A stretch of DNA of 64,000 bases from a virus: the IMG/VR virus record IMGVR_UViG_3300046616_000188; one strand, 5' to 3'. Within the stretch, counting starts at the first letter, position 1. Each line of letters begins with the position of its first letter. The position numbers were made by a program, and so were the translations under genes. Positions 2,764 to 47,505 of the stretch are shown piece after piece. The notes below the pieces were generated by a model. That model saw nothing but the letters and a program-made list of their open reading frames with translations, was not told where the DNA came from and searched no databases.

Positions 2764-2911
2764 GTCGTTAACTCCTTTGTTCATACATAGACCATATAGA
2801 ACAATGTAAGATAACGCAATACATTATCTTACATCAATCATAATCTATTATATATTACATATCACTAATGAATATATAATGTATAATAGATTAACCTATG
2901 CAGCAGGTAGG

Positions 2912-5074: not shown

Positions 5075-5096
5075 CTGCTTATTTCCTTGTTTCGAT

Positions 5097-5131
5097 AGAT
5101 GTAAGTTAGAACATTTCCTTACATCTGGCAA
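5097..5131 (-). promoter_or_regulatory. Palindromic early promoter (short-spacing class)
   Basis: TTGCCA-17-TAACTT; 9-bp arms AGATGTAAG/CTTACATCT separated by 12 nt. Confidence 0.75.
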
Positions 5132-5140
5132 GAGGGAATT

Positions 5141-5452
5141 TTAAAAAAGTTGCAGAGTGTTTATGTAAACGCGGAAATAAATCAAGCGTCCTGCATCGCT
5201 ATCGGGATCAATACCGGCTTCATAGCAAGTATCTAATGCGTTTTGATCAGCTGAATCATGCTTCGCTTGTGTCGCCTTGCCGCGATAGTGAAGCGCGGTA
5301 GCGGCTTCATTGCGGATTGCCTCAAGCAATGCGGCAAAGGCTTTATCTTCCACGTTCCAAGCCTCAAGAGTTTGCGCATTATCGGCAATTTCCTTTGCAG
5401 CCTGATATGCGAGAAATTCAGCCGCGAAGTTGGTTACAAGCTCATTTGCCAT
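5141..5452 (-). CDS. Hypothetical early protein
   Basis: 103 aa, SD, dedicated upstream promoter. Confidence 0.7.
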   Translation of the reverse strand: MANELVTNFAAEFLAYQAAKEIADNAQTLEAWNVEDKAFAALLEAIRNEAATALHYRGKATQAKHDSADQNALDTCYEAGIDPDSDAGRLIYFRVYINTLQLF

Positions 5453-5473
5453 TGCCGTTTCCTCTTGTTCGAT

Positions 5474-5508
5474 AGATGTAAGTTAGAACATTTTCTTACA
5501 TCTGGCAA
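5474..5508 (-). promoter_or_regulatory. Palindromic early promoter (short-spacing class)
   Basis: Near-identical to 5097-5131. Confidence 0.75.
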
Positions 5509-5537
5509 GAGAGAATTTTAAAAAAGTGAAGCGCTCC

Positions 5538-6296
5538 TTAGAGCGCTTTAGGCCGATTAACGATTGTCGTCTTGACGCCTTTATAATCGTTATGCTGCTT
5601 TACCGTCGCTTTGAAAGAGATGGTATCTCCCATTTTCCCCATCTCGTTATTGAAGAATGAAACAATGTCGTTACCGATTCTAACTTTCGTGATAGTGTAA
5701 CCGGCTTGGAATTCCGTTTCCTGCTTTTCAATGAAAGCAAAAATTTCGCCTTTAAATTCGCGACGTTCGCCAATCGTGCCAATGAAGGAAGAAAGAGAGT
5801 CAACTGCGAAGCGTTCGGCGCGGATTGCCTCGCGTTTGGCAATCAAACCCTTTTCCAGTGCAACGCCTTGGCAAGCCGCAATCAAGGCATTGGAAACCAT
5901 GTTAGCTTCGCTCAAAGCTTGATCCGCAAAATACAGCACATATGAATCAGGAGCATCAACAATCTTGACGCCTTTGTGTTTACCGAACGGAAAAACGCCG
6001 CTTTCAATCGCTTCAATGTTGCGCGTGTCATAGATCGAAAGTTTGCCACGGCGCTTGTCAGCGACAAATTCAGGGCAATCATCAAGAATGATGACAAGGC
6101 TTTCTTGATCAGCAACGCGTTGCTGCAAACGCTCTACATAGTCCGTTGCCTTCTCAATTGCTTTTTCTTCCGTAGCAGCAAGATTGCAGATGTAGTTATC
6201 AAGAAAATGAACGTTGCCACGTACCGCGACTCGCAGTGTGTACATAGCATTTTTAGCGCCGGTCGAAATGTAGTAATTGCGAATCTGCTTTTCCAT
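5538..6296 (-). CDS. Protein with DUF3820-like motif and C-terminal OB-fold-like domain
   Basis: FPFGKHKG..I.DAPDSYV.Y motif; C-terminus FIGTIGERR...GDTISFKATVKQH..YKG. Confidence 0.6.
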   Translation of the reverse strand: MEKQIRNYYISTGAKNAMYTLRVAVRGNVHFLDNYICNLAATEEKAIEKATDYVERLQQRVADQESLVIILDDCPEFVADKRRGKLSIYDTRNIEAIESGVFPFGKHKGVKIVDAPDSYVLYFADQALSEANMVSNALIAACQGVALEKGLIAKREAIRAERFAVDSLSSFIGTIGERREFKGEIFAFIEKQETEFQAGYTITKVRIGNDIVSFFNNEMGKMGDTISFKATVKQHNDYKGVKTTIVNRPKAL

Positions 6297-6318
6297 TTCC
6301 GTATTCCCTTTAATTGCG

Positions 6319-6361
6319 TTGACCATGTAAGGAAGATACGACTCTTTCCTTACATGGTCAA
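6319..6361 (-). promoter_or_regulatory. Palindromic early promoter
   Basis: Perfect 16-bp IR TTGACCATGTAAGGAA-N11-TTCCTTACATGGTCAA; minus strand TTGACC-17-TATCTT. Confidence 0.85.
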
Positions 6362-6563
6362 TAGGCAAATCACGGAATTTTTAATAAAACCGCTTTTCGT
6401 TTCCGTCGCGCTTATCCGCCGCAACGAAAGAGAAAACGTTGCGCCTTGCGGCCTTATCACGTCTTGCGTTCTGGATTGCGCGCTTGTTCATTTTGTTCTG
6501 CGACATGCTCTTAACTCCTTTTGAGCTTATCCCGTTCCACCATTGGAACGGGAAACGTTGCGG

Positions 6564-6950
6564 TTAATATTCGATATCTGCACTCAGCGCGGAATGAAAA
6601 CATTCCGCGATGTAGTCTTTGATTTGGCGCTTGTCGCGTCCAGTGACGCGGATTGTGAAGCCATACACAAGAGAAGGCGTCACAATAACCTTGTGCATGG
6701 TCCAACCATCGTAATAGCCTGCATCGTTCATGTGATGAAATCCCGTTTCAAAAACGAGACGTTCCGGCTTGCTTTCATCATCGTTGAATTGCGTTCCAGA
6801 ATCGAAGCCGGAACCGGATGGCATAACATTTTTGCAAATGTCTGTAATGGCGTCTTCGTGCTTTTCCAGCCATTCCACATTGCCGGATTTCTCGCAATTC
6901 AGCATTGCTTGGAACCGATTCGCAATTTCCTGATAAACTTTGCGCTGCAT
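6564..6950 (-). CDS. Hypothetical phage early protein
   Basis: 128 aa; MPSGSGFDSG...FHHMN..GYYDGWT resembles, from recall, a phage family of unknown function. Confidence 0.75.
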   Translation of the reverse strand: MQRKVYQEIANRFQAMLNCEKSGNVEWLEKHEDAITDICKNVMPSGSGFDSGTQFNDDESKPERLVFETGFHHMNDAGYYDGWTMHKVIVTPSLVYGFTIRVTGRDKRQIKDYIAECFHSALSADIEY

Positions 6951-6955
6951 TTCCG

Positions 6956-7162
6956 TTACTCCTTAACGGGCTCGATTGAAAAGATTTCGGACATTGCGCC
7001 TTCATAGGCAAAAACGTCGAAATGGTCTGGATTGTCGCTATCCTCTTCAATGAACATATCAGAGAACATTGTGAGAATGAACGCCTTTGCCGCATCAACC
7101 GTTTCCACGGTCTTGAGCAGCTTTTTCGCGCCATTCGCGATTGTCTCGATTTTGTAGGCCAT
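6956..7162 (-). CDS. Small acidic hypothetical protein
   Basis: 68 aa with SD and own promoter. Confidence 0.65.
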   Translation of the reverse strand: MAYKIETIANGAKKLLKTVETVDAAKAFILTMFSDMFIEEDSDNPDHFDVFAYEGAMSEIFSIEPVKE

Positions 7163-7178
7163 TTCTTCAATCCCTTGT

Positions 7179-7221
7179 TTGACTATGTAAGGATATTAAA
7201 ATCATTTCCTTACATAGTCAA
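7179..7221 (-). promoter_or_regulatory. Palindromic early promoter
   Basis: 15-bp IR TTGACTATGTAAGGA/TCCTTACATAGTCAA; TTGACT-17-TAATAT. Confidence 0.85.
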
Positions 7222-7230
7222 TACCTTTTT

Positions 7231-7551
7231 TCACTTAAATTTCACTTTGACGCTATGCCAGCCAGCCTTAACGCTTACAACGCGTTTTCCAGCCGGAACA
7301 AACGTTGTGTTGCCTACCTGCTTAAACTTGCCATTCGACAAGCGTCGAATCACGTTGAACGGTTCAAAGCCTGTTACAGCGTTCCACGCGGTAAAGAATG
7401 CCGCATCTCTTGCAACGCTATCGCCACGCAAGTTTTCGCTTGTGGCATGAATGCACTTGCCATTGTGCCACAACGTAAACGCGTTAGTTTGCGTTTCGTA
7501 GCACTTAATTTCCACTCCCATTTTATAGCGGGAAAAAATAAGGTTCTGCAT
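7231..7551 (-). CDS. Hypothetical early protein
   Basis: 106 aa, SD AAGGAGCTAAG. Confidence 0.65.
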   Translation of the reverse strand: MQNLIFSRYKMGVEIKCYETQTNAFTLWHNGKCIHATSENLRGDSVARDAAFFTAWNAVTGFEPFNVIRRLSNGKFKQVGNTTFVPAGKRVVSVKAGWHSVKVKFK

Positions 7552-7555
7552 TGGC

Positions 7556-7774
7556 TTAGCTCCTTAAAGCCGTTTTGGCTTCATTCATGACACTGAAAAG
7601 CGCGCGGCGCGTTCTGGTAAAGCTTGCCGGAACCGATACGCGATTAAGAAGGCCTAGCGCCTTGCACATAGCGTTGTAACGCGTTTCATGGCAAACCGTA
7701 CCATCTCGGCTTTCAAGCCAGCGCAAGCGGCTTACAATGGCTTGAATCTCGTTTTTGATGTAAGTATCAGTCAT
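7556..7774 (-). CDS. Hypothetical early protein
   Basis: 72 aa, SD GGAGCTAAG. Confidence 0.65.
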   Translation of the reverse strand: MTDTYIKNEIQAIVSRLRWLESRDGTVCHETRYNAMCKALGLLNRVSVPASFTRTRRALFSVMNEAKTALRS

Positions 7775-7792
7775 GGCCTTAGCTCCATTGGC

Positions 7793-7838
7793 AAGCGTTT
7801 AAGAATGGCGCTCCAATGAGCGCCAAATTTAAAGGCTT
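7793..7838 (-). other. Intergenic long stem-loop, RNase III-site-like (copy 2 of 3)
   Basis: AAGC-C-UUUAA-AUU-UGGCGCUC-loop-GAGCGCCA-UUC-UUAAA-C-GCUU. Confidence 0.65.
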
Positions 7839-8016
7839 AGTTGTTTCGTTCAGCTTCGATTGCTTCCATTGCCTCACGAATAACGCGAGTCATGTCGGAA
7901 AAATCGCCGTGGTTTTCGATGAAAGTAATGGCCCACTCTTTCAGTGAAGGGGAAATGATTCCCAACTCAGTCAAGACCATTTTTTCCTTCAAAGCCTTTG
8001 TTTCTGCGTTTGCCAT
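7837..8016 (-). CDS. Hypothetical early protein
   Basis: Start MANAET after AAGGAAATACGGAA. Confidence 0.65.
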   Translation of the reverse strand: MANAETKALKEKMVLTELGIISPSLKEWAITFIENHGDFSDMTRVIREAMEAIEAERNN

Positions 8017-8032
8017 TTCCGTATTTCCTTTG

Positions 8033-8075
8033 TTGACCATGTAAGGAACTTAAACGCTTTTCCTTACATGGTCAA
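8033..8075 (-). promoter_or_regulatory. Palindromic early promoter
   Basis: Perfect 16-bp IR; TTGACC-17-TAAGTT. Confidence 0.85.
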
Positions 8076-8091
8076 TAGGCTTTTTAAAAAA

Positions 8092-8430
8092 TTACCATCT
8101 TTCGCCAGTAAGCCAAACTTTGAAGTTTTCAGGGAATTTCAAACCATAGGGCAAATCTTTGTTTGCGCGGCAGAACCTGTTATGGAGTGCAGGCTTTTCG
8201 CTATGCATCCATTTTTTGAAATCTTGATATTCCGGCAAAGCCGCATACATATCGTTTATCTTGTCGCGGTTATGGCAATAAACATAACCGCCAAACGGTT
8301 GTGCCGTAACGCCTAATGCAGACATGCTGGCGACATAAGTGCGATATTCAGAAAAGAGCGGATGCGACTCATCTGCTTTAGTCGTAACAGGCTGAATCGG
8401 AGCCATGGCGGCGCGTGACATATCAAACAT
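8092..8430 (-). CDS. Hypothetical early protein
   Basis: Start MFDMSR after AAGGAACTAAGCAG. Confidence 0.7.
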   Translation of the reverse strand: MFDMSRAAMAPIQPVTTKADESHPLFSEYRTYVASMSALGVTAQPFGGYVYCHNRDKINDMYAALPEYQDFKKWMHSEKPALHNRFCRANKDLPYGLKFPENFKVWLTGERW

Positions 8431-8446
8431 CTGCTTAGTTCCTTTG

Positions 8447-8489
8447 TTGACCATGTAAGGAAGATATGACTCTTTCCTTACATGGTCAA
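8447..8489 (-). promoter_or_regulatory. Palindromic early promoter
   Basis: Perfect 16-bp IR; TTGACC-17-TATCTT. Confidence 0.85.
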
Positions 8490-8497
8490 TAGGCTTT

Positions 8498-8782
8498 TTA
8501 AATTTTATTCAGCGCCAAGCGCAAATCATACGTGCGCTTGATATCTGCTCTAATCGCTGCAATCGTCTCAGCGCTAAGACCGTCAACAATCATGAACGGT
8601 TCAACGATATTAGCGCCGCTCAAGTTTTGAACCGTGATAATCACGCCGCTAGCCATATACTTATCGGTATTGGCCTTTCCGATATCCCTGTTAGCACTTG
8701 CCAGCGTTCCTATATCATGCGCCTTGGATTGCAACAAATCTTTCGCGAGTTGCGCGGTGCGGGAAAGTTTCTTTGCAGTCAT
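8498..8782 (-). CDS. Hypothetical early protein
   Basis: 94 aa, translationally coupled to the upstream gene. Confidence 0.65.
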   Translation of the reverse strand: MTAKKLSRTAQLAKDLLQSKAHDIGTLASANRDIGKANTDKYMASGVIITVQNLSGANIVEPFMIVDGLSAETIAAIRADIKRTYDLRLALNKI

Positions 8783-9021
8783 TAGCTCAAATCCTCTTTT
8801 GCGTAACGGATTCGACCGTCATCGATATATAGGCCGGTTTCGTGGTTATAACCATCTCTAACCCATTTATGTGCCGTGGTACGATGAATGGCCTTGTAGA
8901 GCCAAAAGCCGTTGCCTCCATCATCGTCACTTTCATAAACGAATCGATTGGCTTGCTCCATAGCCTTCTCCGACCTAAATTCAACAAGCATGTCGCGGCG
9001 TTGATCGATGGCATAAATCAT
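8782..9021 (-). CDS. Hypothetical early protein
   Basis: 79 aa, SD GAGGAGCTAAGCAG. Confidence 0.65.
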   Translation of the reverse strand: MIYAIDQRRDMLVEFRSEKAMEQANRFVYESDDDGGNGFWLYKAIHRTTAHKWVRDGYNHETGLYIDDGRIRYAKEDLS

Positions 9022-9033
9022 CTGCTTAGCTCC

Positions 9034-9384
9034 TCACATAGCCACTTTGATAATAGTTGCGTCTTCAAAGCAAGCCCGGTAAAGCTGACCGCGAGTCACG
9101 CCTATCATGCGATAAGTTGAAAGCTTGCGAGTAGAACCGGGAACGGGAACGCCGCAAATCAATGCGCCGGTTTCAGTTCCTTCTATCACATCGCCTTCGA
9201 TATCGAAAACGTTATATGTGACTCGCATTCCGCCGCGTTCAGGATGAAACTCTTTTTCGACAGTCACGGCGCGTTCCACAATGTTTGTAATAACCATTGT
9301 GCCGCGTGCATATGGCTGCATATCAAACTTGACGGTTTTTCCAGTCATGTTATGCGCGAAAGATTCGTTCAGAAAAGAAGGCAT
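9034..9384 (-). CDS. Hypothetical early protein
   Basis: Start MPSFLN downstream of a palindromic promoter. Confidence 0.65.
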   Translation of the reverse strand: MPSFLNESFAHNMTGKTVKFDMQPYARGTMVITNIVERAVTVEKEFHPERGGMRVTYNVFDIEGDVIEGTETGALICGVPVPGSTRKLSTYRMIGVTRGQLYRACFEDATIIKVAM

Positions 9385-9400
9385 TTGCTTAATCCCTTGT

Positions 9401-9443
9401 TTGACCATGTAAGGAACTTAAACGCTTTTCCTTACATGGTCAA
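9401..9443 (-). promoter_or_regulatory. Palindromic early promoter
   Basis: Identical to 8033-8075. Confidence 0.85.
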
Positions 9444-9478
9444 GCGTCCTTTCTCACAATTATGTGAAAAAGAACATT

Positions 9479-12172: not shown

Positions 12173-12264
12173 GGCCTAATCTCCTTTAAGGCGTTGATTG
12201 ACTGTGACCTAAACATATTCTTACATTCGAGTCACGTCAAGAGGCTTTTTGAATTTTTTATTCG

Positions 12265-15389: not shown

Positions 15390-15641
15390 TCAAGCAACAG
15401 ACTTCCAAGACTTGCTCAGGTTGATCAGCTGCTTGCCGCGAGCCGTTGCGCCATAGACGATCTTCTTGCGACCACGAGTCGCGGCCTTGATAGCGTCTGT
15501 GACAACGCGTTCCTTTTCAGCGATGTAGCCGAGGTCGATCAGTTCCTGTTTAACCGCGTAAGGCACAACATCCTGATTGGTCAGGAGGGCCTTAAGCTGA
15601 GCCACGATGCCGGGGTTGGTGCGAAGTTCCTTGCGAGCCAT
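15390..15641 (-). CDS. Small basic putative winged-helix DNA-binding protein
   Basis: RGRKKIVYGATARGKQL resembles a MarR/PadR wing; own promoter (TTGACG-17-TAGATT) and terminator. Confidence 0.55.
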   Translation of the reverse strand: MARKELRTNPGIVAQLKALLTNQDVVPYAVKQELIDLGYIAEKERVVTDAIKAATRGRKKIVYGATARGKQLINLSKSWKSVA

Positions 15642-34035: not shown

Positions 34036-35964
34036 TTACTCCTTCTCAAACATAAAAACGAGGCGAGGATACGCCTCGTCATGAATATCAGCCGCGATAT
34101 GTTTAAATGTATACCTTGCCCCATCCTTCAAGACCACGACCTTTTTAATAAATTCCATCTCATCCGTATCAATAGATTCCCTATCGACATGGAGATTTAG
34201 GTTGTTATAGTATTGTGTCATATCGTTCAGCCTGAAACGGCCCAAGGCTTCCTCGATATAGAACAAGACAGGCGCGACATATCCCAGCCGATGCTTTTGT
34301 CTGAAGTTCTTTTCCTTATTAGCTTCGTACCATTCCGACGTGACGTGGTCTAAATTGATAACTAGGCTCATATCTATTCCTCCACATATCCATAACGAGA
34401 CATGGTTTGGTCCGTTTCGATCCAAGTAAAGGCATGAACCGATTTGGCGAAGCTGATCGGCACCCTGATCCAGAATATCAAGGCGTAGCGCTTCTCCACC
34501 ATGTAAGTCTCATCACGGCGCATCGTAACTCTGTATCTGCTCATTTACTTAATCCTCCCCGTTGTGAAATACTCCAATTCATTAGCGATTTGCAACAGGT
34601 GAGCCGCGTTATACAACTGCTCCCCACCACTCTGAACATCGTGGTCCGCGACATATCGTAACGCTTCTATCGCCCTGCCGAGACAATCATTGGGCCACTT
34701 AAACGATTCGATATGGCGTGCCGCAGCTTCCAAGCCCTTCTCAATCCCAGCTTCATACGCGGCCCAATCAGACAGACCATGACACGATAACGTCGAATAT
34801 GTCACGTCAAGGTTGCGAATCTATTACCCTGATTGTTTCCAATGTCAATCCTCCTTATCTAGCAATGTACCACCTATAGGTGGTTCCGTGTTCCTTATCT
34901 TGAGACAGAGATTGAAACCCTGCCTCGTCAATGTTTCTAGATCGGCGGCGCGGTTCGGATTTCTATCCCCCGCCGCAGCGGCGATTCTGCCGAACAAGCT
35001 CTGACAATCTCCTAGCGCGATAAGGAGTTGCTTCCTAGTGTATTTCATCGTGACGGCCTCCACGCCTCAATAGCTTCGCGCCAACGGTTAACCTCATTCA
35101 TAAGGTCAAGCATGGGCGACACGGTAGAGACGATGTCCACGTTAGCGATATGATCGGCAAAGACATGGATGCGAAACGTTGTACCATCTCGGTTCATCAT
35201 GGCCGTGCCATAAAAATTTTTGTGACGGTTCAGATGCTCGAAATACTGATGCACGTTAAGTGAATAAGTCGATCCATTACTGAGAGACATGACGTTCTCC
35301 TATGTTGAGGAATAATGTTTTTCTATTATCTTTTCTTACATCCAAATTAAAACAAAGTCAACATTAAAAACGCTTCATCGCGTAACTAATCATTCCAGCC
35401 ATGGAATGCCTGCCACGGTCATAATCATCTAGTATAGGAATGGTTCTCATCTCATCCATGAGTCTGACCACGTCGGCCCGACTCAGATTATTCTCCTCGA
35501 TAATCTTAATCACACGTTTCGCCGTGACATACTTACCGATATTGAAAGGTTCCGAGGAATATATGCTGCAAACGTCGTCTCTAATTTTTTCAATAATTTT
35601 AATCACGTCAAACCCCCAAAATTTCTTTACGCGCCGCGAGATAGCCCCCGACATAGCTGGCTCTATACTTCGCGAAAATGATTTGAGCATCATCAGGACC
35701 AGCCAAGTGGACCAAGTCACTTAACATGTCTCCATGTCGTTCCCTTAATTCATCCATCTTAGGCACGAACACTGTGTCAAAGTCACGACCAATTTCTTCC
35801 AACGATTTCATCTCAGCTCTCCCCCGGCAAACGTTGTTCCGCAATCCTAATAATATCTTTGGCATAATCCATGATCCGCACCGCGTCATAGATAATATCC
35901 TGAGCCCAATTACGATCAGACATATTCTCGGCCAAAGCAGCGATGAGGTCAGCCATTGGATCAA
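34036..35964 (-). other. Cluster of small hypothetical genes (34036-34371, 34545-34805, 34845-35048, 35045-35290, about 35364-35600, 35608-35811)
   Basis: Co-oriented ORFs with SDs. Confidence 0.55.
35333..35361 (-). promoter_or_regulatory. GATG-TAAGAA class promoter
   Basis: TTGACT-N13-GATG-TAAGAA. Confidence 0.75.
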
Positions 35965-35973
35965 TCGATTCTC

Positions 35974-36372
35974 TCATACCTTATTACCCTTCTCCACGTT
36001 ACAGGTGAAACACATGGTTTGGTAGTTATCCATATGATTAGCTCCACCCTTCGACTTAGGAATGATATGATCCTTCGTGATCATAACCTCTTCCCCGTCA
36101 CTATTCATGCCGTAAAGATTAAAGTGAAAACCTTTCGACATAGGAGTAATGCTGCCATCCGGCCTGCGTTTCACAGTCCGTTCCATGGCGTAATACAGAC
36201 CAGCCGTGCCACAACTGACGCAGCACCTATTCTTGGCAAAAAGCTTATATCTGTCACTACCAGTTTTCACTGTTGCGCCATCTAGCACAACTTTTTTATC
36301 GGGGTTGTCATAGGCAATCAGTGAAGTGACATGCTCAACACTATATGTCCCGCGCCGTTCATACATTCTCAT
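35974..36372 (-). CDS. HNH endonuclease (HNHc type)
   Basis: CCVSCG ... TKDHIIPKSKGGAN.MDNYQTMCFTCNVEKG. Confidence 0.88.
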   Translation of the reverse strand: MRMYERRGTYSVEHVTSLIAYDNPDKKVVLDGATVKTGSDRYKLFAKNRCCVSCGTAGLYYAMERTVKRRPDGSITPMSKGFHFNLYGMNSDGEEVMITKDHIIPKSKGGANHMDNYQTMCFTCNVEKGNKV

Positions 36373-37742
36373 TCTCAGTAACCTTTACATTATTTAAAAA
36401 TTTGGAAAACATCTCGGTACGAATTTGATCCAAAGGTTTAAAGTTCAAATGATTATAACTAGCAAAAGGATTTTTACCAATCTCCGCAAGGCTGAGATAG
36501 ATATGACCCATATGCACCCCACCAGTACCCGGATTGATCGCATTAATGGTGTAGATTTTATTTATTACCGGAACGTCAGCACCAGTCTTCCTAGCTATAT
36601 CATATGTCTCTTCGTCAAAATGTTTGACATATACCACTTTCTGACCCACCACAAATTTACAATCCATGACACTTAATCCTCTATCTTAACCGTGACAGCT
36701 TTTTCTGTAGCGCTGTAGAACCTAATCCCGCCGATATCAATCAGGCCATCGATCAGATTATCAACGACTGTAACAGCCATTTCCCTCGTGTCACAAACTT
36801 CGTGACACATCGCGCCGCTGCTTTCACGCCACGTAACGATGTAAACCATACTACTTCCGCCTCCCGTCAAAACCCATTTCCTGAGCCCAACGAACCACGA
36901 CGTAATGAAATCCGCGATGCAGGCTGTCAACAGCTGGTTGCATATTAGCCTTCTCCTTATCAGAGAGGTCGCGCCACGCATCATCGAAGTGCCTCGACGG
37001 GTCACAAACGTTTTGGTTCCGAAGATTGTGAAGGTCCAACTTGTCAAGCAGGGATTGGTACTCAGCCTCAGTGATTACGTATTGTCTCGCCATTACATTA
37101 CTTCTCCCAATACGGCTTCAGCAGATTACCGGCACTATCCAGAACGTCACGAAGATCATAGAGCTTGTCAATAATCGGCTGAGCCTCTTCTTTCATCCTA
37201 ATTTCGAGTCGGCGCTGCACCTCGGCCTCAATGTCTTTATAATTTTCTCTGATCTCACTCTCAAGACTTTTATAAACATCCTGAAAATAATTTTCAACAA
37301 TGTCGAACCGAAGCTCTACCCCGTTAACAGTCACTTTAGCAGTGAGGCTTTTGTTATTTACCCAATCAGGAGTATTGCCGATAGCTTCAGCCGCGTCATT
37401 GTCACACAGCATCCAATGGTTAATGATCTTATCCCGATCATCAAGGCTAAATTTAAGCTCTTTCGCCATGTTACTTCTCTCCCGTACTGTACGATGTTTC
37501 ATTGAAGAACTTTGTACAACCTAAATCACTTAGTGTCAATCACTATCTGTTTCGATCCAATGCGTAGCCTCGCCATAAATCGAATTCATCGTTTCGCATT
37601 GCTTCTCGGCCCACGCCTCCCGATCCACAGTGGCATGAAATTCATAGTTGACGATTTCCTGCCTCCCTGACGGGAGAGTATATCGCCCCGCCATCACAGG
37701 AATATCGCCCCAGCACAGATAATATTTGATGTTGAAGTTCAA
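36359..37742 (-). other. Small hypothetical genes (36359-36667, 36851-37093, 37098-37469, 37536-37742)
   Basis: Co-oriented ORFs. Confidence 0.6.
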
Positions 37743-38143
37743 TGTTTCATCCCCGCTTCTAACTCATCCGCCAGCGGTTGGAGCACTTTGTCCCAAATCT
37801 CTTCACCAATCTTATTGGCGATATAATCCGACACAACGTCATGGCCATCATTGCCATAGATCATGCGGAACCAGCACACATATTGATTCTTATCGTTCAT
37901 GACATAGACCACATCTTCATCCGTGCTAAACATCGCGGCGAGGATAGCTACCTTATCACCAGAGTTATCGATGGCAAGCGCTCCACCATCATCGATGGTA
38001 ACGAGATAGCCGCGATCCAAAATTGCTTGGATCAGCGCGTCAGCCATTTTGCCTTCGACCCGGATACGCTCAGCCGTACCATTATCGCCACGTTTCGTTG
38101 CTTCGCGTGCCGCTTTGTTGAATGGGTTAACTGACTTAGCCAT
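37739..38143 (-). CDS. Hypothetical phage protein
   Basis: GY.VTIDDG...MFSTDED...IYGNDG.DVVSDY motif. Confidence 0.7.
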   Translation of the reverse strand: MAKSVNPFNKAAREATKRGDNGTAERIRVEGKMADALIQAILDRGYLVTIDDGGALAIDNSGDKVAILAAMFSTDEDVVYVMNDKNQYVCWFRMIYGNDGHDVVSDYIANKIGEEIWDKVLQPLADELEAGMKH

Positions 38144-38175
38144 GTCGTTCTCCTTTTAATCAGTGACTATATCTT

Positions 38176-38204
38176 TTCTTACATCTGTTTCAAGACAATG
38201 TCAA
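38176..38204 (-). promoter_or_regulatory. GATG-TAAGAA class promoter
   Basis: TTGACA-N13-GATG-TAAGAA. Confidence 0.75.
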
Positions 38205-40821
38205 GCCCCACTCCTATCCATTTCTTTCCACCAAAGCGGATAGCCATTATATTCACTCATATCGATTTCAAGAAGATCGATGTACCACGAATAACTGGAC
38301 GAACTGCCAGTGACGCGGCCAAAATCTCTGGTTGAATATCGATTCACGCCCATTTGATCCTCGATAGTCTCATAGATAGTGCCTTCGTTATGAATTTGAA
38401 TTATTGTAACCATGGTCCCGTTAAGGAGTTTATAGCTCTGACCCAACTTGAACGGAGAGGGTAAGAGACAGGCAGAAAGAAAATTACGAAGATCGCTCCT
38501 CGCCTTCTTCACCGTGGCGTGGTTATGATCGAAAAGAGTGTGAAGCTTGACCAAATCATTACTCAATTCAGCAAATCTCGACTTCTGTTCCTCAATGTTT
38601 AGCACGTTGTTCTCCTTATTGTTAGGAACTATGTTTAACAATTCATATCGACTTGAGCCATTTCGGTCATCACTTCGTCCCAGCTTAGAACCGTGTCAAC
38701 GTTCCAGCCCCGAACCACAAAGCCATTGCTAGGCCCAAGTTCAGCGAGCCGCTTCACGTCTTCTTCTGACTTGACCGCGAAGGTAAGTAAATTGGGATAG
38801 CCATCATACATGATTCGAACGGCGTAGAATTTGTCAGTCATTTTACTTTTCCCTTCCAATGTTTGGATGATCCGCGAGCCATTGTGTCCAATGCTCAGGC
38901 TTTTCACTGCTGCGATCCGTGACACGATGGCCCGCCGATTCGTAGGCCCGGTTATAGCCCTTGCTATAGAGCCACGGCTTGCGACGGTTGTAACACGCAT
39001 CGGCGCACATGTCGCACTGCTTGTGATACGCGGAGCGAGGATTGTTATTGGCATAGGCGCTGAGCCAAACCATCTGCTCCGTCTCTTCCACCAATTCATT
39101 GTCCGTCATGGCTTTCAGCTTCGTGGCGTATTCGTTAAAATCGGTCATATCAACCCTCCTTAAAATCACTTGAGGACTTATTCTTACATCCACACCATTT
39201 CGAAGTCAAGCATCAAGTGTCACAAATTCTTTCCGAAACTCCGACACGTCCCACTTTTGAAGCGGCTTGAACCTAGAAATACGAAACGCCTGTTCCGATT
39301 CACCCATAACTCTGTATATAATAAGTGGGTTAGTGATTTCCATCAATTTTATACAAGCATGCCAGCCTAGCTCGCCGGTGTACCATTCAAGAATTTCTCT
39401 TACGGTATAGACAATCCCCCTGACGGGGAAGACCACTCCTCTATCCGCAGTCACCAAGGCTCTGCCGCTGTCCCAACCAGAATCATTTATAAGTTTAACG
39501 TGTTGACCTATTTGCATCAGTCATAACCTCCTGTCAAGGGATAATAATTTCATCCCTAAGCTCTTCATAGGCCTTTAACGCAGCTTTATAGAGTCGTTCA
39601 CGTTCAGGCCGTGCCGGTGCATCTGTGTCGCACCAAGCCAAGTCATACAAAGTATCATCTACCTCTGACGCGGCTTGATCCAGCCTCTTAATTTTTTCTA
39701 TCAACCCACCTAAAGTGATCATGTCAGTTCTCCTTAACAGGACGTGGAATAATACCCTTTTGGATCAATTTGTTCCACGCCATACGTTCATAGACATAGC
39801 CGATGACGAAGCCGATACTGAACGTGGCGATGAAGAAAATAGTGACAAAAAGAATTTCCACGTCACAACCCCCACTTTTCCATGACACCAATCATTTAAA
39901 TCTCCAATTTCCCCATTGAACTTAAAGAGAAGGCCCACGCCGTAGGTCCCTCCCGCATCTCTTTAAACATTTCCGCCGCGATTCTGTCAATATTATCCGG
40001 TGTCAATGTTTCACCACAATGACAAATAAGGATGTGACGAATCGTAAATTCTTGTGTCGCGGCGCGGTTATTCTGATCAGCCATTAATTATCCTCCTCGA
40101 TATTATTTTTATCAAACTTAGGATCGGGACGACGGCCCGGTGCGAATCGTGGATGTGTCACATAATCCGAAACCGGGCCGAAATAGTATTGAGGCACGGC
40201 GTTGTTATAATAGACACGGCTGAGCCAGAAACCCATATAGCGAGTCCCAAGCACCAAACCTTTCCGCCGAAGCCTTTTGCAACTTTTGCAATTGCAGAAC
40301 CTACCACTCATCAGAAGTTCTCCTACAAATCAATCATAATCGTCATAGTCATCGTCAATATCACTAAACATTTCTGTGAATCTGGCGTGCCACTCCCTAA
40401 CGCTCTGGATATAGCGCTCATCATTCTTCAACTCATCGCTGTAACGCATCGCGATCATCTTGTTAGTGAAAGCGTAATGGCACGCATCGGCTGAGCTTTC
40501 GATGTTATAACTCCCAAGAAGCTCACCCTCTGCATTTTTGCGCCCCGGTCCCGTTCCATCATATTCACTGATAGTATTCGTGACGCAATAAAACTCAGGA
40601 CCGGAACACAGCACGGCGTAGTCGCGGCGAAGAACTTTTGGCTCGCGCAACACGGATTTCGAAGTGATAAGGAAAGAGGAAAGATAACCACTCTGTGTCA
40701 CGGTCCAGATACGAACCGGTTCCATCTTAGCCTCTTCGATGAGATGGATAATTTCGGCCCGATACTTGATTGAACCGGCAGGTGCGGGAGCATCGCTACG
40801 GTCGGCGCGGTACTGAGTCAT
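38201..40821 (-). other. Small hypothetical genes (38201-38641, 38635-38841, 38843-39148, 39206-39517, 39534-39722, 39896-40084, 40084-40311, 40330-40821)
   Basis: Co-oriented ORFs with SDs. Confidence 0.6.
39181..39209 (-). promoter_or_regulatory. GATG-TAAGAA class promoter
   Basis: TTGACT-N13-GATG-TAAGAA. Confidence 0.75.
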
Positions 40822-40857
40822 TTTAAATCTCCTTAATCAGTTGATCTTATGAGTATT

Positions 40858-40886
40858 TTATTACATCTAAAATTGTCACGTGTCAA
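40858..40886 (-). promoter_or_regulatory. GATG-TAATAA class promoter
   Basis: TTGACA-N13-GATG-TAATAA. Confidence 0.75.
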
Positions 40887-41664
40887 TCACTTGTTTCAGA
40901 ATTTAAATCACGGCCCTGAACATAAGCCTCTATAGCTGCATCAACCGCTTTTCTAAGCGCTAAGGCAGAATACCTATAATCAGCTGGAACAGCTGCTTCA
41001 TAAGCTGCTACGGCGGTGTCATGCACCCTCTGGTTACTCTACCGGATCGTTAATTACTCTCTCACTCATTAATTTTCCTCCTAGGTCACGACTCAGAATT
41101 TAAATGATAAGCCCTATTGATCAACATCGAAAGCTGAAAAGCGCTTAGACCAAACATGTGAGCAATTTCAGCCTCAGTTCTACCGAGACGGAGCGCCGCT
41201 CTAAAACCTTTCATCCTCGCGTCAAGAAAGTCGGACCACCACGTCATTGATTCTGCTTCTTCACGAGTCATTCTGACACCTCTGCCGTTACGTCTTGACC
41301 AATAACGATATCGCCATAACCGTAGATTGCGCTGGTATGAAGTGTGACCTTCTTCATCATAGGATATCTTTCAACCAGTGAAGCAAGGATCACCTCTTTG
41401 ATTTCCTGAGCCGTTAGTTCAATTTTTAAACGAGCCATTACTGCGCATCCCTCACTTCAACAACGGCGTGCTTGATTTGGACCGCAATCCCTTTGGTCCA
41501 ATCCACCGTAGCACTAGTGTTACACACTAAGCAAATGACATAAATGAAAATTCCGAATCCTAAAACATTTCTAATCATATAAAACTCCTTAAATTATCAC
41601 GAGCCAAAGGACGTAAAGAAAAATCCCTAGTGCTAAAACGCTTCCAAGCATAACAATCCCTTCT

Positions 41665-42141
41665 CTAATATTGATACCAGATCATACCATAATCAATGAC
41701 ATAATCAATCCAGAATTGCTCCATCAGCGGCAAAATCTTGGCCGTTTTCGTCTCGAATTCACTTAGAGCTAGGTCCTTAACCGTTAAAATTTCGGTAAAA
41801 GTGATTATGTCACAACGTTCACCTATTTTCAAGGCGTAATTTGAATGATAATTCGGGAGAAGCAGCTGCTCGGAGTGATGCTCAGGACTGAAAAGAGTAT
41901 CTTCAAGGTCGTAGTTTTTCGTCTCAGAGAGAATGTGCCACAAGATATGCTGAGCCGATTCGATATTTTTTGTCACAGTATCAGGAATTTCCGACACAGT
42001 GCCGCCGCATGTCTCACAATATTTCCCGAGTCGAGACGTATCGCAACGGGCGCAGATTCGCCTAACCCCCTTTTCTGTCACGGTGAGCGGGCCGGTGAGA
42101 CGGAGATAAGGACCGATATAGGTATAAGTGCTATGGCCCAT
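41665..42141 (-). CDS. Zn-ribbon-containing hypothetical protein
   Basis: CARC...KYCETCG. Confidence 0.65.
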   Translation of the reverse strand: MGHSTYTYIGPYLRLTGPLTVTEKGVRRICARCDTSRLGKYCETCGGTVSEIPDTVTKNIESAQHILWHILSETKNYDLEDTLFSPEHHSEQLLLPNYHSNYALKIGERCDIITFTEILTVKDLALSEFETKTAKILPLMEQFWIDYVIDYGMIWYQY

Positions 42142-42142
42142 C

Positions 42143-43668
42143 TCAATACTCCTCCACTTCAATCTCAATCGCTGGCTGATGAGCATTGAATCTTGCCACC
42201 AACCTCCAATCATCTTCATCAACATTTTCGAATAGTGTGAAGTATGAATATGTTCCGAACAAGGCTCTAACAATTTCTAGAGCTTTAGTTCTGGCTTGGT
42301 CCACATCTGAAGCGTTACAGACAACGTCAAGAACCGGCTTAGTGATGTTGCCTTGGGCACGCAAAATGAATTCTTTCATACCTACTCTCATGTCAAATCT
42401 CCTTTGATTTAAGAACAACCCTGTATTGCTTCAACCAGCCATTATCGTTACGCATCTCATTGATTGTAACAATCCTATCTCCATATAGAGCGAAAAGGGT
42501 GTCACAGTCTTGATAGCTAGTATCGGTATAATCGAAATAGAGGATTTCACCGTCTACCGGCGTTTCCAAATTGTCGCTCAGTGTGCGTGCCACGTCACGA
42601 GCAATGGCGGCGATATGATCCACATCAAATGCATCATTATCTTTCCATGCCCGTAGAATCCGGTACACATCGGCAGGATTGACCACGGCATGTTTCATCT
42701 CGCCCCAGCGAGACAGATTGCGATTTGGTGCTACTGGTTCCATATCTTTACAGTCACAGAGTTTTATTGGTGAGTGTGAGAAATTACATCCCGGTTTGTG
42801 GTAGCTGTTCGCCATTTCAATCCCTCCTTACCACTGCGCCGTCGATTTGGCGGAAATATGTATTTTGAACCGGAACCCAATCTTCAGGATTATTAAAGGG
42901 CCATGAAGAGTGTAGCGTAACTTCGCTAATCATCATGCGTCGGTCGTACATATCTGTAAATGTTGCAGAGATATACTTCTCAGCCGCCTCAAAATTATCG
43001 AAATAACCATGGGCACCGGGAAGCATGACGTAACCATACTGATCCACTTCACACACTGCGAAAATTCTCTGAGACATATTAACCTCCTTCAAAACCTCTT
43101 TTGATGACTTATTATTACATCAGCATTGTGCCAGTGTCAATGCTTTAAATAATCTTGATACACCTCTGGAAAAACTGGCCAAGATTCTTCTAACGCATTG
43201 ATTTTACGAGTCAAATATTCAAGGATGATGCGTTTTTCAGAGTTGGCGACATGAGGTTTTCCAAATTCATTAAATTTAAACAGCCGCCTCAGTCGAATAT
43301 ATTCTCTAAAATTTGAATGCATTTCTTCTATTCCGACAGGCCCGAAATACTCCCGCACCGGTTCCGGTTCACGTTCGAAATTTTTAAATTTGGACCAATC
43401 AATCATGCTCTACGTCCCTCGTATGTTTAAAATAAAACATGACCCATTTATGCCGGTCCCATGGATCACCGTCATAATCTCCCGTCACATATCCGCACCG
43501 GCTATGCCTGACATAGACTTGATCGGTGATAATATTGTAACCGGTAGGGGCGTATCCCATACCAGTATCAGCGATGTACAAAAACTTAAAATTCTTTTTG
43601 AATCTGTACCAGAACAGGATTCTTTCTATCATGTCAACCCAAGCCTCTTTCCCATTCTCTTTTTCCAC
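42143..43668 (-). other. Small hypothetical genes (42143-42391, 42393-42815, 42817-43077, 43137-43406, about 43399-43630)
   Basis: Co-oriented ORFs. Confidence 0.6.
43112..43140 (-). promoter_or_regulatory. GATG-TAATAA class promoter
   Basis: TTGACA-N13-GATG-TAATAA. Confidence 0.75.
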
Positions 43669-44030
43669 GCCAGATAGACCTCGCGGCCCCTTTGAGTCAC
43701 TGTGATACGAGTCCTATTGATGGTAGGGTTTCCGCCATGAACATTATTATGACTCTGATACCTTGACAGTGTAACTTCACCATCTCTGATCATTTTCTTA
43801 ACAACGGTGTCGAGTCCGAAACCGCCTTCGCAGTTCAATGCAGCCTGCCCCGTTCCGCCACGCCTCGTGCCACGATACGAAGACCATGACGGGTAGTCGT
43901 CAAAGCCTTCGATCATGAACATTAGCATGTACATCCGCTTCGGCACGAGAGTTCTGATCCTGCTCCACCGGTTCAGAAATTCATCATATTGATTCGGCTT
44001 CGTTGTTATGACTTTTCTGAAATAGACCAT
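43629..44030 (-). CDS. Putative winged-helix protein
   Basis: VVKKMIRDGEV...RTRITVTQRGRE wing motif. Confidence 0.45.
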   Translation of the reverse strand: MVYFRKVITTKPNQYDEFLNRWSRIRTLVPKRMYMLMFMIEGFDDYPSWSSYRGTRRGGTGQAALNCEGGFGLDTVVKKMIRDGEVTLSRYQSHNNVHGGNPTINRTRITVTQRGREVYLAWKKRMGKRLGLT

Positions 44031-44291
44031 ATCAATCCCTTTCAAAAGCTTGGCGAAACTCATTCCTTACACTAATGAGTGTGTCTACCTCTTCCATCGT
44101 GAAGCGAACGATGAGAACTTTGTGAGAAGGAGTATCCTCATCATCAGACGGAACAGGTATCGTAACGCTGAAGTGCTGATTCCTAGGCAGTCCCGGCACG
44201 GCATAATCACCCATGCCAAAGCTAGGATCGCCAAGTGCCAACATCTTTTTCGAACCTGTCTTATGTATCACAGCCATTTCGTTTCTCCTTT

Positions 44292-44909
44292 TTAACAGAA
44301 TTTATAAATTCCTTGATGCAGTTCCATTAACTCATCCAGCATATTTCGCCGCGCCTGTCGCTCCCATACCGGATGGTTCCAATAAATCTGAGGTGCATCG
44401 AGCATCCCTTTGAGGAACTTGGTCCGACCCTCAACGAATTGATCCAGTGACACAAAAGGTTTATATTCTTCCCAAATCTTCTTCCCATTATCTCGATAAT
44501 TTAAACCGGCAAGGCCGGATAAGTCATAGTCAAGGAAATTTTTGGCCCAATGGGGAAGGGCGTCGTTAGACATGGCACAATGATTCTTTGACGCCTTGAT
44601 AGCTTCAAATATATGTTCTTCGGCAGGACTGTGATAACCGTCACCGCCAACGCTCTGACTCCAATACACGTCAGCGCTTAGCTCTTCGTTATACCGACAA
44701 ACGGGGTAGTACACAATGTCGTGGAACAGGATCGCCGTCATAATCGGATCGGTGATCCCATAACCATGATGCATCGCTATAGCGATCAAGTCTTCGATAT
44801 GATCAATGTTGTGATACTTGCGATGCGGCTCGCTATAAAGATCGATGATCATATCGATGCAATGAGAGAAACCATTCTGTTCCGCGATTTTCTTGATTAG
44901 TTCTGACAT
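44292..44909 (-). CDS. HD-superfamily phosphohydrolase
   Basis: Y.EPHRKYHN..HI...AILFHDIVY...NEE.SA...FLDYDL. Confidence 0.85.
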   Translation of the reverse strand: MSELIKKIAEQNGFSHCIDMIIDLYSEPHRKYHNIDHIEDLIAIAMHHGYGITDPIMTAILFHDIVYYPVCRYNEELSADVYWSQSVGGDGYHSPAEEHIFEAIKASKNHCAMSNDALPHWAKNFLDYDLSGLAGLNYRDNGKKIWEEYKPFVSLDQFVEGRTKFLKGMLDAPQIYWNHPVWERQARRNMLDELMELHQGIYKFC

Positions 44910-45195
44910 TCACTGACTCCTCAAATATTTGACCATAGCATCGATCAGTTCATTCTCTTCCGGCGTATTGCTGACATTCTTGCAATCTTGTTCCAATCGA
45001 TCAGCAACGATATAGACATTTTCGCTACTATACATACTCCCTAGGGCGAAGAACCGCGTGGCGCAGTCGTAGAGCACAGCGCTTTCGAACGTGATAGGAT
45101 AATTCATTTTGAAACCCTTCTCCCTCCTTATAATTTCTTTTTACTTTTTATTACATCGTGATCAATGTGTCAAGTGATTTTAGCACGCAGCCTTA

Positions 45196-45522
45196 TCATG
45201 CCGCAGGATTATGGTTGAGCCTTATCATGCACCAAGGATATTCTCGATTAACAACGACATAGCCTCGACGTTCCAGATAAGGCACAAGCCTATTGTTAAA
45301 AATGTTCTCGACATAGAAAATGTGATCCGGTTCGTACCGATCCAAAAATTTAGTCAATGCGCCGCGCCCCGGAACATCAGCCGTTATGTTAGCCAGATCG
45401 ATGGTGTCGCAATTTTCTATCCGCCACGTCTTCCTGACATAGATATGCAGTCCCGGTTCTTCGATCCAGTAATTAGGCCAAGGACTGGCTAGGAATTTTT
45501 CAAACGATAGTTGTCCCATCAC
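45196..45522 (-). CDS. Possible GNAT-fold protein
   Basis: LANI.ADVPGRGALTKFL...YVENIFN...YL.RRGY. Confidence 0.45.
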   Translation of the reverse strand: MMGQLSFEKFLASPWPNYWIEEPGLHIYVRKTWRIENCDTIDLANITADVPGRGALTKFLDRYEPDHIFYVENIFNNRLVPYLERRGYVVVNREYPWCMIRLNHNPAA

Positions 45523-45809
45523 CCTCCTCCCTTCTTCCTAACAACACGTACCGGCTTCAACTCGAAACCCAACATCCTATAAGCCATCTGCATCGTCACG
45601 CCTTGCGGTCTCCTAGTCTTACCGTCAATGATATGTTTAATCGTGGCTGGTGCCAGCCCTGAACTATTCGCCTTGGCGTGATACGTGCGTTTATCCATGA
45701 CAAGCGCGGCGCGCAACTCGGAAAGCAGTGGATCAACATCAGGCCTCTTGGGCCGATCCTTGGACCAGAGCACTCTTTTGATTTTGCGGGGTTTGTTAGC
45801 CATGTCCAT
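45519..45809 (-). CDS. Cro/XRE-type HTH protein
   Basis: AKANSSGLAPATIKHIIDGKTRRP...LG. Confidence 0.7.
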   Translation of the reverse strand: MDMANKPRKIKRVLWSKDRPKRPDVDPLLSELRAALVMDKRTYHAKANSSGLAPATIKHIIDGKTRRPQGVTMQMAYRMLGFELKPVRVVRKKGGG

Positions 45810-45810
45810 A

Positions 45811-46188
45811 TCACCTGTCTCCGACTTGGTGGCCCAATACGATAACGACGTTTTGCAGCGAATCTATCTTGGTATGAGCGTCTTCCAACTTGGCCAGCAG
45901 TTCGTCCCTGACCGAGAGGAGGGCCAAGACCTCAGCCCTAGCATCCCCTAGTTCGTCTCGGACCAATGCTTTACCATTAGCGATATGAGGAGTGACGGTA
46001 TCGCCCCCGCCCCTCTTGGCCCTAGGCCTTGCCCCGCCAAATTTGTCGTGATACTGCTTCACCCAATATCCAATAGTGCTGGCTGGAAGGCCAAGTTGTT
46101 CCGCGTATTTCTCTTGACTCATGTCTGACTCGATCTGAGCCTTGGCATGTCTCATCCTCTCTTCAAAGGGTAGACTGGTTCGTGCCAT
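45811..46188 (-). CDS. HTH plus coiled-coil protein
   Basis: SQEKYAEQLGLPASTIGYWVKQY; C-terminal heptads. Confidence 0.7.
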   Translation of the reverse strand: MARTSLPFEERMRHAKAQIESDMSQEKYAEQLGLPASTIGYWVKQYHDKFGGARPRAKRGGGDTVTPHIANGKALVRDELGDARAEVLALLSVRDELLAKLEDAHTKIDSLQNVVIVLGHQVGDR

Positions 46189-46455
46189 ATTTCAAACTCC
46201 TAAGACTCTGGTTACGAGTCCTAGGAGTATAGCAAGACCAAGAGTTATGCAAGCCCCTGCTATTTCAGGTGATCCCTCAGACTGTTACTAGTGGTGTAGA
46301 ACAACAGAAACCCAATGGCGTAATCTATCCGCGACGTACCATGATTTGCATACGCGGCGATGTCACAGACGGCGAGGACGATCCACGAAACTATCATAGC
46401 CATGACAAATATAAAAACTTCTCTTAAAATAGTTTTTAGCACTTCAATTCCCCTC

Positions 46456-46659
46456 CTACTTCTTCTCCATCAGCCCTTCATCAAGAAAGTCATCATCGAT
46501 TTCTGCCCCGATATCGGTCAGCACATCAACCATTTCGAGAATCAGCAAGCGGCGAGCGTTGTGCTCTTCAGCGCTGAGACTGTCATCGTGAATCGATTCG
46601 CAGCAGTAGCGAAAATCGCTGAGCGTGTTGCGGAACTTACAATAAGACATGTTAGCCAT
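46456..46659 (-). CDS. Small acidic phage protein
   Basis: MANMSYCKFRNTLSD motif. Confidence 0.65.
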   Translation of the reverse strand: MANMSYCKFRNTLSDFRYCCESIHDDSLSAEEHNARRLLILEMVDVLTDIGAEIDDDFLDEGLMEKK

Positions 46660-46660
46660 G

Positions 46661-47047: not shown

Positions 47048-47078
47048 GTCATAACCTCCTTCAAAATTTCATAATCTT

Positions 47079-47107
47079 TTATTACATCAATGAAGACAAT
47101 GTGTCAA
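47079..47107 (-). promoter_or_regulatory. GATG-TAATAA class promoter
   Basis: TTGACA-N13-GATG-TAATAA. Confidence 0.75.
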
Positions 47108-47445: not shown

Positions 47446-47476
47446 TTGAAATCTCCTCTTAATTGAACTAAGTATT

Positions 47477-47505
47477 TTCTTACATCTACGCCAAGCCCTT
47501 GTCAA
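47477..47505 (-). promoter_or_regulatory. GATG-TAAGAA class promoter
   Basis: TTGACA-N13-GATG-TAAGAA. Confidence 0.75.

Follow-up and report, generated by a model that had tools for sequence, protein, structure and literature searches.

Cassettes named PeSL, which combine a promoter with a stem-loop, have been described in the T4-type phages RB49/phi1, PST and nt-1 (PMC2839356; PMC4122927). Each copy contains a strong sigma70-like promoter, an AT-rich upstream tract and a stem-loop that lies between the promoter boxes, overlaps either box or sits just outside them, and about 100 bp are conserved per copy (PMC2839356). The stem-loops serve as terminators and as recombination sites, modular shuffling was reported with one crossover mapped to the loop, and the copies concentrate upstream of genes without assigned function (PMC2839356). 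Here we analysed a set of elements of this kind, five palindromes of 43 nucleotides (nt) with a predicted promoter nested in each, in a 64-kb section of a large phage genome (IMG/VR record IMGVR_UViG_3300046616_000188), which is called the window below.

Three other kinds of phage or bacterial element are relevant for comparison. The conserved inverted repeats of phiC31, the stoperators of mycobacteriophage L5 and the C1 operators of P1 are systems in which one repressor acts on the operators of many early promoters. The early promoters of phage N4 are short-stem DNA hairpins with a 3-nt loop, have no -35 and -10 boxes, and are read by the virion RNA polymerase. In phage T7, RNase III processing hairpins are located between the early genes, and repetitive extragenic palindromic (REP)-type palindromes are intergenic sequences that stabilise mRNA. 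The operators of PadR-type regulators contain ATGT and ACAT about 8-10 nt apart (PMC3506622).

Results

The long palindromes of the window lie at 6319-6361, 7179-7221, 8033-8075, 8447-8489 and 9401-9443. These five and their equivalents in related phages are called class A here. An earlier note on this DNA had reported them together with two short palindromes and with inverted repeats at 2804-2834 and about 12200-12240, and all of these were found where it had placed them. The copies at 6319, 8033, 8447 and 9401 have perfect 16-nt arms and an 11-nt loop. The copy at 7179-7221 carries the C-to-T and G-to-A double change given in the note and is paired at 15 of the 16 positions. As a small correction to the note, the loops of the 6319 and 8447 copies differ by one base, and therefore the five copies represent four distinct palindromes.

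On the minus strand, each of the five long elements of the window consists of TTGACY, the 10-nt word ATGTAAGGAA, the 11-nt loop and the reverse complement of the first 16 nt. The predicted promoter runs along the same strand, with TTGACY followed after 17 nt by a -10 hexamer of TATCTT, TAAGTT or TAATAT. The left arm opens with the -35 hexamer. The -10 hexamer begins in the loop and extends by two bases into the right arm, which also contains the predicted start. At the core of a direct repeat of 81 nt (family D1) lies the palindrome; the repeat comprises an upstream A-tract, the promoter, a leader, a Shine-Dalgarno sequence and an ATG. The distance from the start of the -35 to the ATG is 59 nt in the window cassettes and 65 nt in one copy.

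Relatives of the window were collected by pattern and protein searches. They were the IMG/VR contigs G001, G002 and G003 (near-identical to G002) and a more distant metagenome contig, L036; further out were G004, a complete 184,940-bp genome with terminal repeats, and G005, a 59.7-kb phage that has one cassette gene in common with the window. The DNA shared between the window and its relatives was 67-97% identical and mosaic, and none of the relatives was the window itself. About 20 class A copies were found in all (window, G001, G002/G003 and L036), with 4-6 copies plus variants per genome, and they were confined to one 4-7 kb block of genes without assigned function. A reversed control pattern gave zero matches, and a looser pattern scan of viral contigs returned only chance single matches outside the clade.

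The 9-mer ATGTAAGGA, allowing up to one mismatch, occurs 40 times in the window versus 13.2 +/- 3.1 in shuffles, and TTGACNATGTAAG, allowing up to two mismatches, 21 times versus 5.6. The pattern TTGAC-N33-GTCAA was found six times, always between 6.3 and 12.3 kb. The RNA folds of the palindromes had energies between -20.7 and -25.4 kcal/mol, with z-scores between -7 and -8, and only 4% of random 43-mers of the same region reached -15 kcal/mol. Chance does not account for the palindromes.

Seventeen copies from four genomes were aligned. Invariant in all of them were TTGAC of the -35, the word in the inner arm and three bases of the -10 (its T, its A and the last T), and the other loop positions showed at least eight alleles. 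The spacer was 16-17 nt across the copies, and an ATG led by a Shine-Dalgarno sequence followed 55-65 nt after the -35. In copies with a 10-nt loop, the spacer shrinks to 16 nt and the TA of the -10 shifts along with it. An A-tract is present at about -40 to -46. The alignment indicates that the class A elements are sigma70-type promoters within palindromes, with the -35 in an arm and the -10 in the loop after 17 nt, which is the nesting that the earlier note had proposed. A bidirectional promoter was ruled out: in none of the loop alleles does the antisense strand carry a TA where the -10 would be, and the palindrome is therefore a predicted promoter in one direction only. No Rfam family matched the palindromes. 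A terminator scan flagged none of the five class A palindromes of the window and did flag canonical terminators nearby, for example at 5529-5548 and 10221-10246.

Pairing between the arms was conserved across the copies: 97.8% of pair cells were Watson-Crick or wobble, versus 29-41% when the 3' partner was slid by 1-3 columns. Arm position 6 is C:G in 11 copies of the aligned set and U:A in four, and G:C in a further L036 copy, in which arm position 7 is also changed from A:U to U:A. Two L036 copies lost outer pairs and gained three to four inner pairs. Hairpins of the same kind are formed by other sequences as well. The promoter at 12198..12240 on the minus strand (W12240) has the same 43-nt span as class A, with TTGAC at the base and GTCAA at the end, and its inverted repeat contains a one-base bulge. 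This promoter and its G3 orthologue G3_2159, which has 15-bp arms, make hairpins of 43-44 nt from TTGAC to its mirror (-15.6 kcal/mol for W12240 and -19.3 kcal/mol for G3_2159), the two being alike in the outer arm and unlike in the inner one. In both, the 10-nt word stays unpaired in the middle between the arms. Imperfect hairpins were more stable on the sense strand, and their G:U pairs lie almost only there, which is only a hint of RNA because random windows already show a sense-strand bias of 60:40. The compensatory change pointed out earlier in the 7179 copy is real, and further cases occur at positions 6 and 7. The alignment thus indicates that pairing is kept by compensatory change in more cases than were first spotted, with the covariation based on few independent events.

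In six pairs of copies, gene-order maps and flank alignments revealed homology on one side only, with the cassette as its limit. W8489, G2_2739 and M36_2537 have the upstream gene in common and are followed by three unrelated downstream genes. W9443 and G2_1730, as well as W6361 and G1_11088, are homologous upstream only, and G1_10268 and M36_3563 downstream only. Palindromes identical at 43 of 43 positions were found between flanks without detectable similarity: W7221 equals G2_4231, and W8075 and W9443 equal G1_9406. The reverse was seen in G1_10268 and G2_4231, where the flanks are near-identical (local scores of 336 and 326 versus shuffle maxima of 26 and 23) and the palindromes have a different covarying pair and, for the most part, a different loop. 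G2_2739 is a hybrid with a left arm of the G:C/U:A type and a right arm of the common type, and a crossover inside the palindrome would yield exactly that. As judged by these comparisons between related phages, the cassettes are places of gene exchange, gain and loss, and the proposal that they serve as recombination homology for cassette shuffling was borne out by the one-sided homology, the identical palindromes between unrelated flanks and the swapped palindrome.

The 10-nt word of the inner arm is not limited to the palindromes. Together with its close variants it occurs 32 times in the window versus 3.6 expected (about 9-fold; shuffle maximum of 9), and nearly all copies, whichever their orientation, lie within the stretch from -35 to +10 of a predicted promoter. 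Orthologous promoters in the relatives retained the word though their spacers had diverged. A second promoter class, found at 35333..47505 on the minus strand, consists of a TTGACA -35, 14 nt (11 in one copy), and then the word, located at the -10. The eight -35 hexamers of this class begin at 47505, 47107, 45173, 43140, 40886, 39209, 38204 and 35361. The word in this class is ATGTAA(G/T)AA after G and creates a -10 of TAAKAA, whereas the -10 of the early block is TAnnTT. The spacing of the second class is fixed in G001 and G002, and the gap is 11 nt in G004. The reverse word TTCCTTACAT is present in one copy each in the non-palindromic promoters at 10095-10123, 17045-17073, 13226-13254, 13915-13942 and 49560-49587, at a variable distance from the -35, and supplies the -10 (TACATT) in two of the five; elsewhere it falls within the spacer. 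The word may be read by a protein or by the polymerase.

Two further sequence features were observed near the early promoters. A leader motif, ATCGAAAC, occurs at about +8 to +15 of many of them, for example in the leaders of non-palindromic promoters at 10080-10090, 13205-13215 and 5085-5095 and at loci L041 and L044, and it is also present in distant relatives without palindromes. A non-coding module of about 110 nt occurs in two copies, 13287-13398 and 14069-14175, which are 79-92% identical and each upstream of a promoter (13254 and 13942).

All five class A cassettes of the window are on the minus strand. Copy 1 (9382..9462) has its palindrome at 9401-9443, its -35 at 9443-9438 and its -10, TAAGTT, at 9420-9415, and is followed by an open reading frame (ORF) at 9034-9384 with a Shine-Dalgarno-led ATG at 9384 and no family match. 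Copy 2 (8428..8508; palindrome 8447-8489, -35 at 8489-8484, -10 TATCTT at 8466-8461) precedes ORF 8092-8430 (ATG at 8430), which has no family match and was found in no relative. The palindrome of copy 3 (8014..8094; palindrome 8033-8075, -10 TAAGTT at 8052-8047) is identical to that of copy 1, and its gene is ORF 7837-8016 (ATG at 8016). Copy 4, the T:A variant (7160..7240; palindrome 7179-7221, -10 TAATAT at 7198-7193), is followed by ORF 6956-7162 (ATG at 7162). Copy 5 (6294..6380; palindrome 6319-6361, -10 TATCTT at 6338-6333), whose leader is 6 nt longer, precedes ORF 5538-6296 (ATG at 6296), which encodes a protein of 252 amino acids (aa) assigned to phrog_3628 and is alone among the cassette genes in having relatives beyond the clade. 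In Pfam searches none of the cassette genes matched, except for one weak match on this 252-aa protein, and Pfam and PHROGs were uninformative for the genes of the cassettes and of the second-class promoters.

The predicted +1, taken 7 nt after the -10, is at 9408, 8454, 8040 and 6326 the A of an ATG in the right arm. In four of the five copies this ATG shares its reading frame with the Shine-Dalgarno-led one located 24-30 nt further downstream, which makes a leaderless start possible. The T:A variant lacks the right-arm ATG and G1_10268 has it out of frame, so that it is probably a by-product.

A short version of the element is located at 5476..5508 on the minus strand, with a -35 of TTGCCA at 5508-5503, the arm word immediately after it and a -10 of TAACTT. 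Its stem is 8-9 bp long with the right arm overlapping the -10, and the canonical terminator at 5529-5548 precedes it. The second short version, at 5099..5131 on the minus strand, is 97% identical to the 5476 copy (family D3). A gap of 12 nt separates the 7-nt arm cores in both (5099-5124 and 5476-5501). The G1 and G2 orthologues of the 5099 promoter kept the left word and have no right arm. A conserved hairpin at 2802..2836 on the minus strand has the same outer arm cores without a clear -35; it lies upstream of a small membrane-like gene and contains G:U pairs on the sense strand only, in three lineages. The genes downstream of this hairpin were considered as regulators and rejected, as they are membrane-like in appearance. 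The surrounding stretch, 2790-2950, is free of genes and contains inverted repeats at 2804-2834, 2841-2893 (22-nt arms) and 2912-2947, the first of which is kept in all relatives. It may be a control region or an origin.

The window carries tRNAs and many small genes besides the gene of a large terminase (24128-25870, minus strand). Small ORFs of the minus strand form a dense row between about 17.1 and 2.3 kb, and the palindromic elements lie within it. The best cultured matches of the terminase, at about 41% aa identity, were Microcystis phage Mwe-JY26, Ruegeria DSS3P8-like phages, Sphingobium phage Lacusarx and CbK-like phages, and no DNA near-identical to the region was found in cultured phages. 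The Gp23 capsid family had no match in the complete genome of the relative G004, in a search run without a positive control. Because of the terminase affinities and this null result, the phage was judged not to be T4-type; it is an uncultured soil phage with a large genome. No giant polymerase gene is present in the window, where the longest ORF has 672 aa. No sign of lysogeny was seen in the 64-kb window. Pfam analysis of the 138 window ORFs identified HNH endonuclease domains, two pentapeptide-repeat proteins and a Lar-like restriction-alleviation protein. No integrase family was present among these ORFs, and an integron-like system was ruled out on this ground.

Candidate regulators were few. 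None of the 138 window ORFs matched a DNA-binding Pfam family. In the relatives, Sigma70_r2 gave no match and r4_2 only sub-threshold matches in a search for a phage sigma factor, and ESM Atlas provided weak leads only. An early protein of 83 aa (15390..15641, minus strand) has a weak PadR/LmrR-like winged-helix fold and is conserved in G001-G004, the four word-bearing relatives that were checked. Its AlphaFold model has a predicted local distance difference test (pLDDT) score of 66 and gave weak matches to PadR/LmrR/MarR winged-helix regulators (Foldseek E of 0.04). It is a weak candidate, though the only one, for a DNA-binding protein, and nothing ties it to the palindromes.

Discussion

On balance we lean, if modestly, toward reading the elements as early-promoter cassettes of about 81 nt, similar to PeSL, in which the hairpin would be an RNA boundary element. 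Each cassette has an A-tract like an UP element, the -35 TTGACY, a 17-nt spacer, the -10 TAnnTT, and about 27 nt of leader, including a Shine-Dalgarno sequence, ahead of the ATG of a small gene. The -35 pairs with GTCAA at about +8 to +12, with the -10 in or beside the loop, and the host sigma70 RNA polymerase would initiate inside the right arm. With the start inside the right arm, the cassette's own transcript would not contain the hairpin. Read-through from the upstream cassette would carry the entire palindrome and form a hairpin of -21 to -25 kcal/mol at the gene boundary. The RNA hairpin would be the selected feature, acting as a site of transcription pausing or attenuation, as protection of the 3' end of the upstream message, or as a processing mark. 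We favour an RNA boundary element because the pairing is kept by different sequences, because the wobble pairs are one-stranded, and because the tight intergenic space leaves room for a hairpin only where it overlaps the promoter. The class A promoters also have no separate upstream terminator, which favours the same reading as a weak trend.

Several observations weigh against this account. Separate upstream terminators were found for none of 21 hairpin promoters versus four of 27 others, which is a mere, non-significant trend. There is no U-tract after the hairpin on the sense strand, and therefore it is not a canonical intrinsic terminator. The sense-strand bias comes from about seven independent cases against a background of 60:40. 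Three copies have uncompensated mismatches, and the compensatory changes themselves could stem from palindrome-correcting template switching instead of selection. Among the distant relatives, G005 has no such hairpin and G004 only one. Finally, almost no copy shows a sequence change at arm positions 8-16, a conservation that goes beyond the needs of pairing, and the same word occurs singly and in both orientations in most other promoters; these two facts point to recognition of the word as a sequence.

Such recognition is the basis of another explanation, which we regard as rather unlikely: the inverted pair of 10-nt words would be an operator, bound by a phage or host protein that shuts off the early promoters. 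The word centres are 20-22 bp apart, about two helical turns, which would put them on one face of the DNA, bracketing the -10 and the start site, and a single word lies within the polymerase footprint of most other promoters. The invariance of arm positions 8-16, the 9-fold enrichment of the word (32 versus 3.6) with nearly all copies at -35 to +10 of predicted promoters, its retention in orthologous promoters with diverged spacers, and the presence of the 83-aa protein with its weak PadR/LmrR-like matches in all four word-bearing relatives tested are all consistent with an operator. However, the outer arm, which is formed by the -35 and its mirror, pairs and covaries, and an operator made of the inner word does not need it. 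The G3_2159 family makes the same hairpin with different inner arms and leaves the word unpaired in the loop; such hairpins built on other arms make it less likely that one sequence-specific operator explains everything. Between the classes, the arm cores are spaced 12 to 18 nt apart (12 in the short class, 16-18 elsewhere). As for the protein, no Pfam DNA-binding domain is present in the 138 window ORFs, and the fold model of the 83-aa candidate is poor (pLDDT 66, Foldseek E 0.04). The distance between ATGT and ACAT is 23 nt in class A and 18 nt in the short class, as opposed to 8-10 nt in canonical PadR sites (PMC3506622). A wider version of the same idea would join both promoter classes, and it seems improbable to us. 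In this version the word would be what a phage factor recognises, or perhaps an unusual -10-region element with two reading directions. The single word would form the -10 region of the second class, which has a perfect -35 and an otherwise poor TAAKAA, and the inverted pair would bracket the true -10 of the class A early promoters, so that one factor would turn the early cassettes off and the next class on, with the hairpin as a second layer.

The palindromy might also have no regulatory role and be a by-product of template switching or arm correction and of homogenisation among copies, with only the promoter and leader under selection. Frequent copy-to-copy exchange is indicated by the hybrid copy and by the palindrome swapped between flanks that are near-identical, some copies with mismatched arms persist, and distant relatives run similar promoters without hairpins. 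We nevertheless think this origin distinctly unlikely, since at least eight loop alleles lie between identical arms, unlike simple conversion tracts, since copies that lost outer pairs gained inner ones, and since independent arm sequences share the 43-nt geometry. A DNA cruciform was given the least weight and is very improbable in our view. Extruded on negatively supercoiled DNA, it would place the -35 in a stem and the -10 in a single-stranded loop, so that the superhelical state of the injected DNA would switch the promoter off (or on). In favour of a cruciform, most arms of class A pair perfectly by Watson-Crick rules on both strands, the loops are AT-rich, and the single-strand DNA hairpins are stable (-12.9 to -15.4 kcal/mol). 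But the 10-12 nt non-palindromic centre should disfavour extrusion, judging from known cruciform behaviour; the hairpins outside class A depend on G:U pairs that are available on one strand only; and, from geometry, the -35 and -10 within a hairpin would be too close for sigma70. The earlier note had envisaged an early switch under the control of a cruciform or a dimeric repressor. Nothing in the sequence shows either control. The search for a recognisable DNA-binding domain found none and gave one weak PadR-like fold as its only lead, and we treat the early switch as a hypothesis.

The likeness to N4 hairpin promoters, which had also been suggested, did not hold up. In both cases the promoter coincides with a hairpin-forming inverted repeat, but here the stem is 16 bp, the loop is 10-12 nt and the -35 and -10 boxes are canonical sigma70 boxes, and the window has no gene for a giant polymerase. 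The elements resemble the operator arrays of phiC31, L5 and P1 in that one short word is present at many promoters, with class A as an inverted pair over the -10 and the start. They differ from them in the wide separation of the half-sites and in the pairing and covariation of the outer arms; the window shows no sign of lysogeny, and no repressor was pinpointed in it. With the RNase III hairpins of T7 and the REP-type palindromes they have in common stable hairpins that lack a U-tract and lie at the gene boundaries of co-directional early transcripts. Those elements, however, are not promoters.

The closest likeness is to PeSL, as had been proposed, and it extends to the promoter, the stem-loop, the distribution of copies and their location at boundaries. 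Both have a sigma70-like promoter preceded by an AT-rich tract, and in both a stem-loop can extend over the promoter boxes. Each copy has about 80-100 nt of conserved sequence, many copies lie in a variable block before genes without assigned function, and copies are found at the boundaries of insertions, deletions and replacements between relatives. The hybrid G2_2739 agrees with the crossover in the loop that was reported for RB49, and a crossover within the stem-loop is plausible. The differences are that the phage here is not T4-type and that its stem is 16 bp, mostly A/T, invariant in sequence and spans from the -35 to about +12, whereas PeSL has short stems of G-runs and C-runs that are variably placed. 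The elements here also lack a U-tract, and their inner arm word is common to other promoter classes. PeSL stem-loops terminate transcription, PeSL promoters are strong in reporter assays, and mini-circles form from PeSL; the likeness described here is one of nucleotide patterns.

To our knowledge, published PeSL cassettes come from T4-type phages only. The same logic, in which a gene brings its own promoter, a hairpin lies at the gene boundary and recombination takes place at the repeat, is seen here in an unrelated large soil phage. What distinguishes this phage is the extreme form, in that the entire promoter is nested in a covarying palindrome, and the presence there of a word common to other promoters. 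The presence of that word in two promoter classes offers a route to the switch from early to later transcription in this phage group. The system is compact, at 43 nt, with clear positions at which pairing can be broken and restored and with several natural loop alleles, and is thus suited to work on hairpin function. Taken together with PeSL, these elements support the view that promoter and stem-loop cassettes are a general, convergent means of shuffling accessory early genes in large lytic phages.

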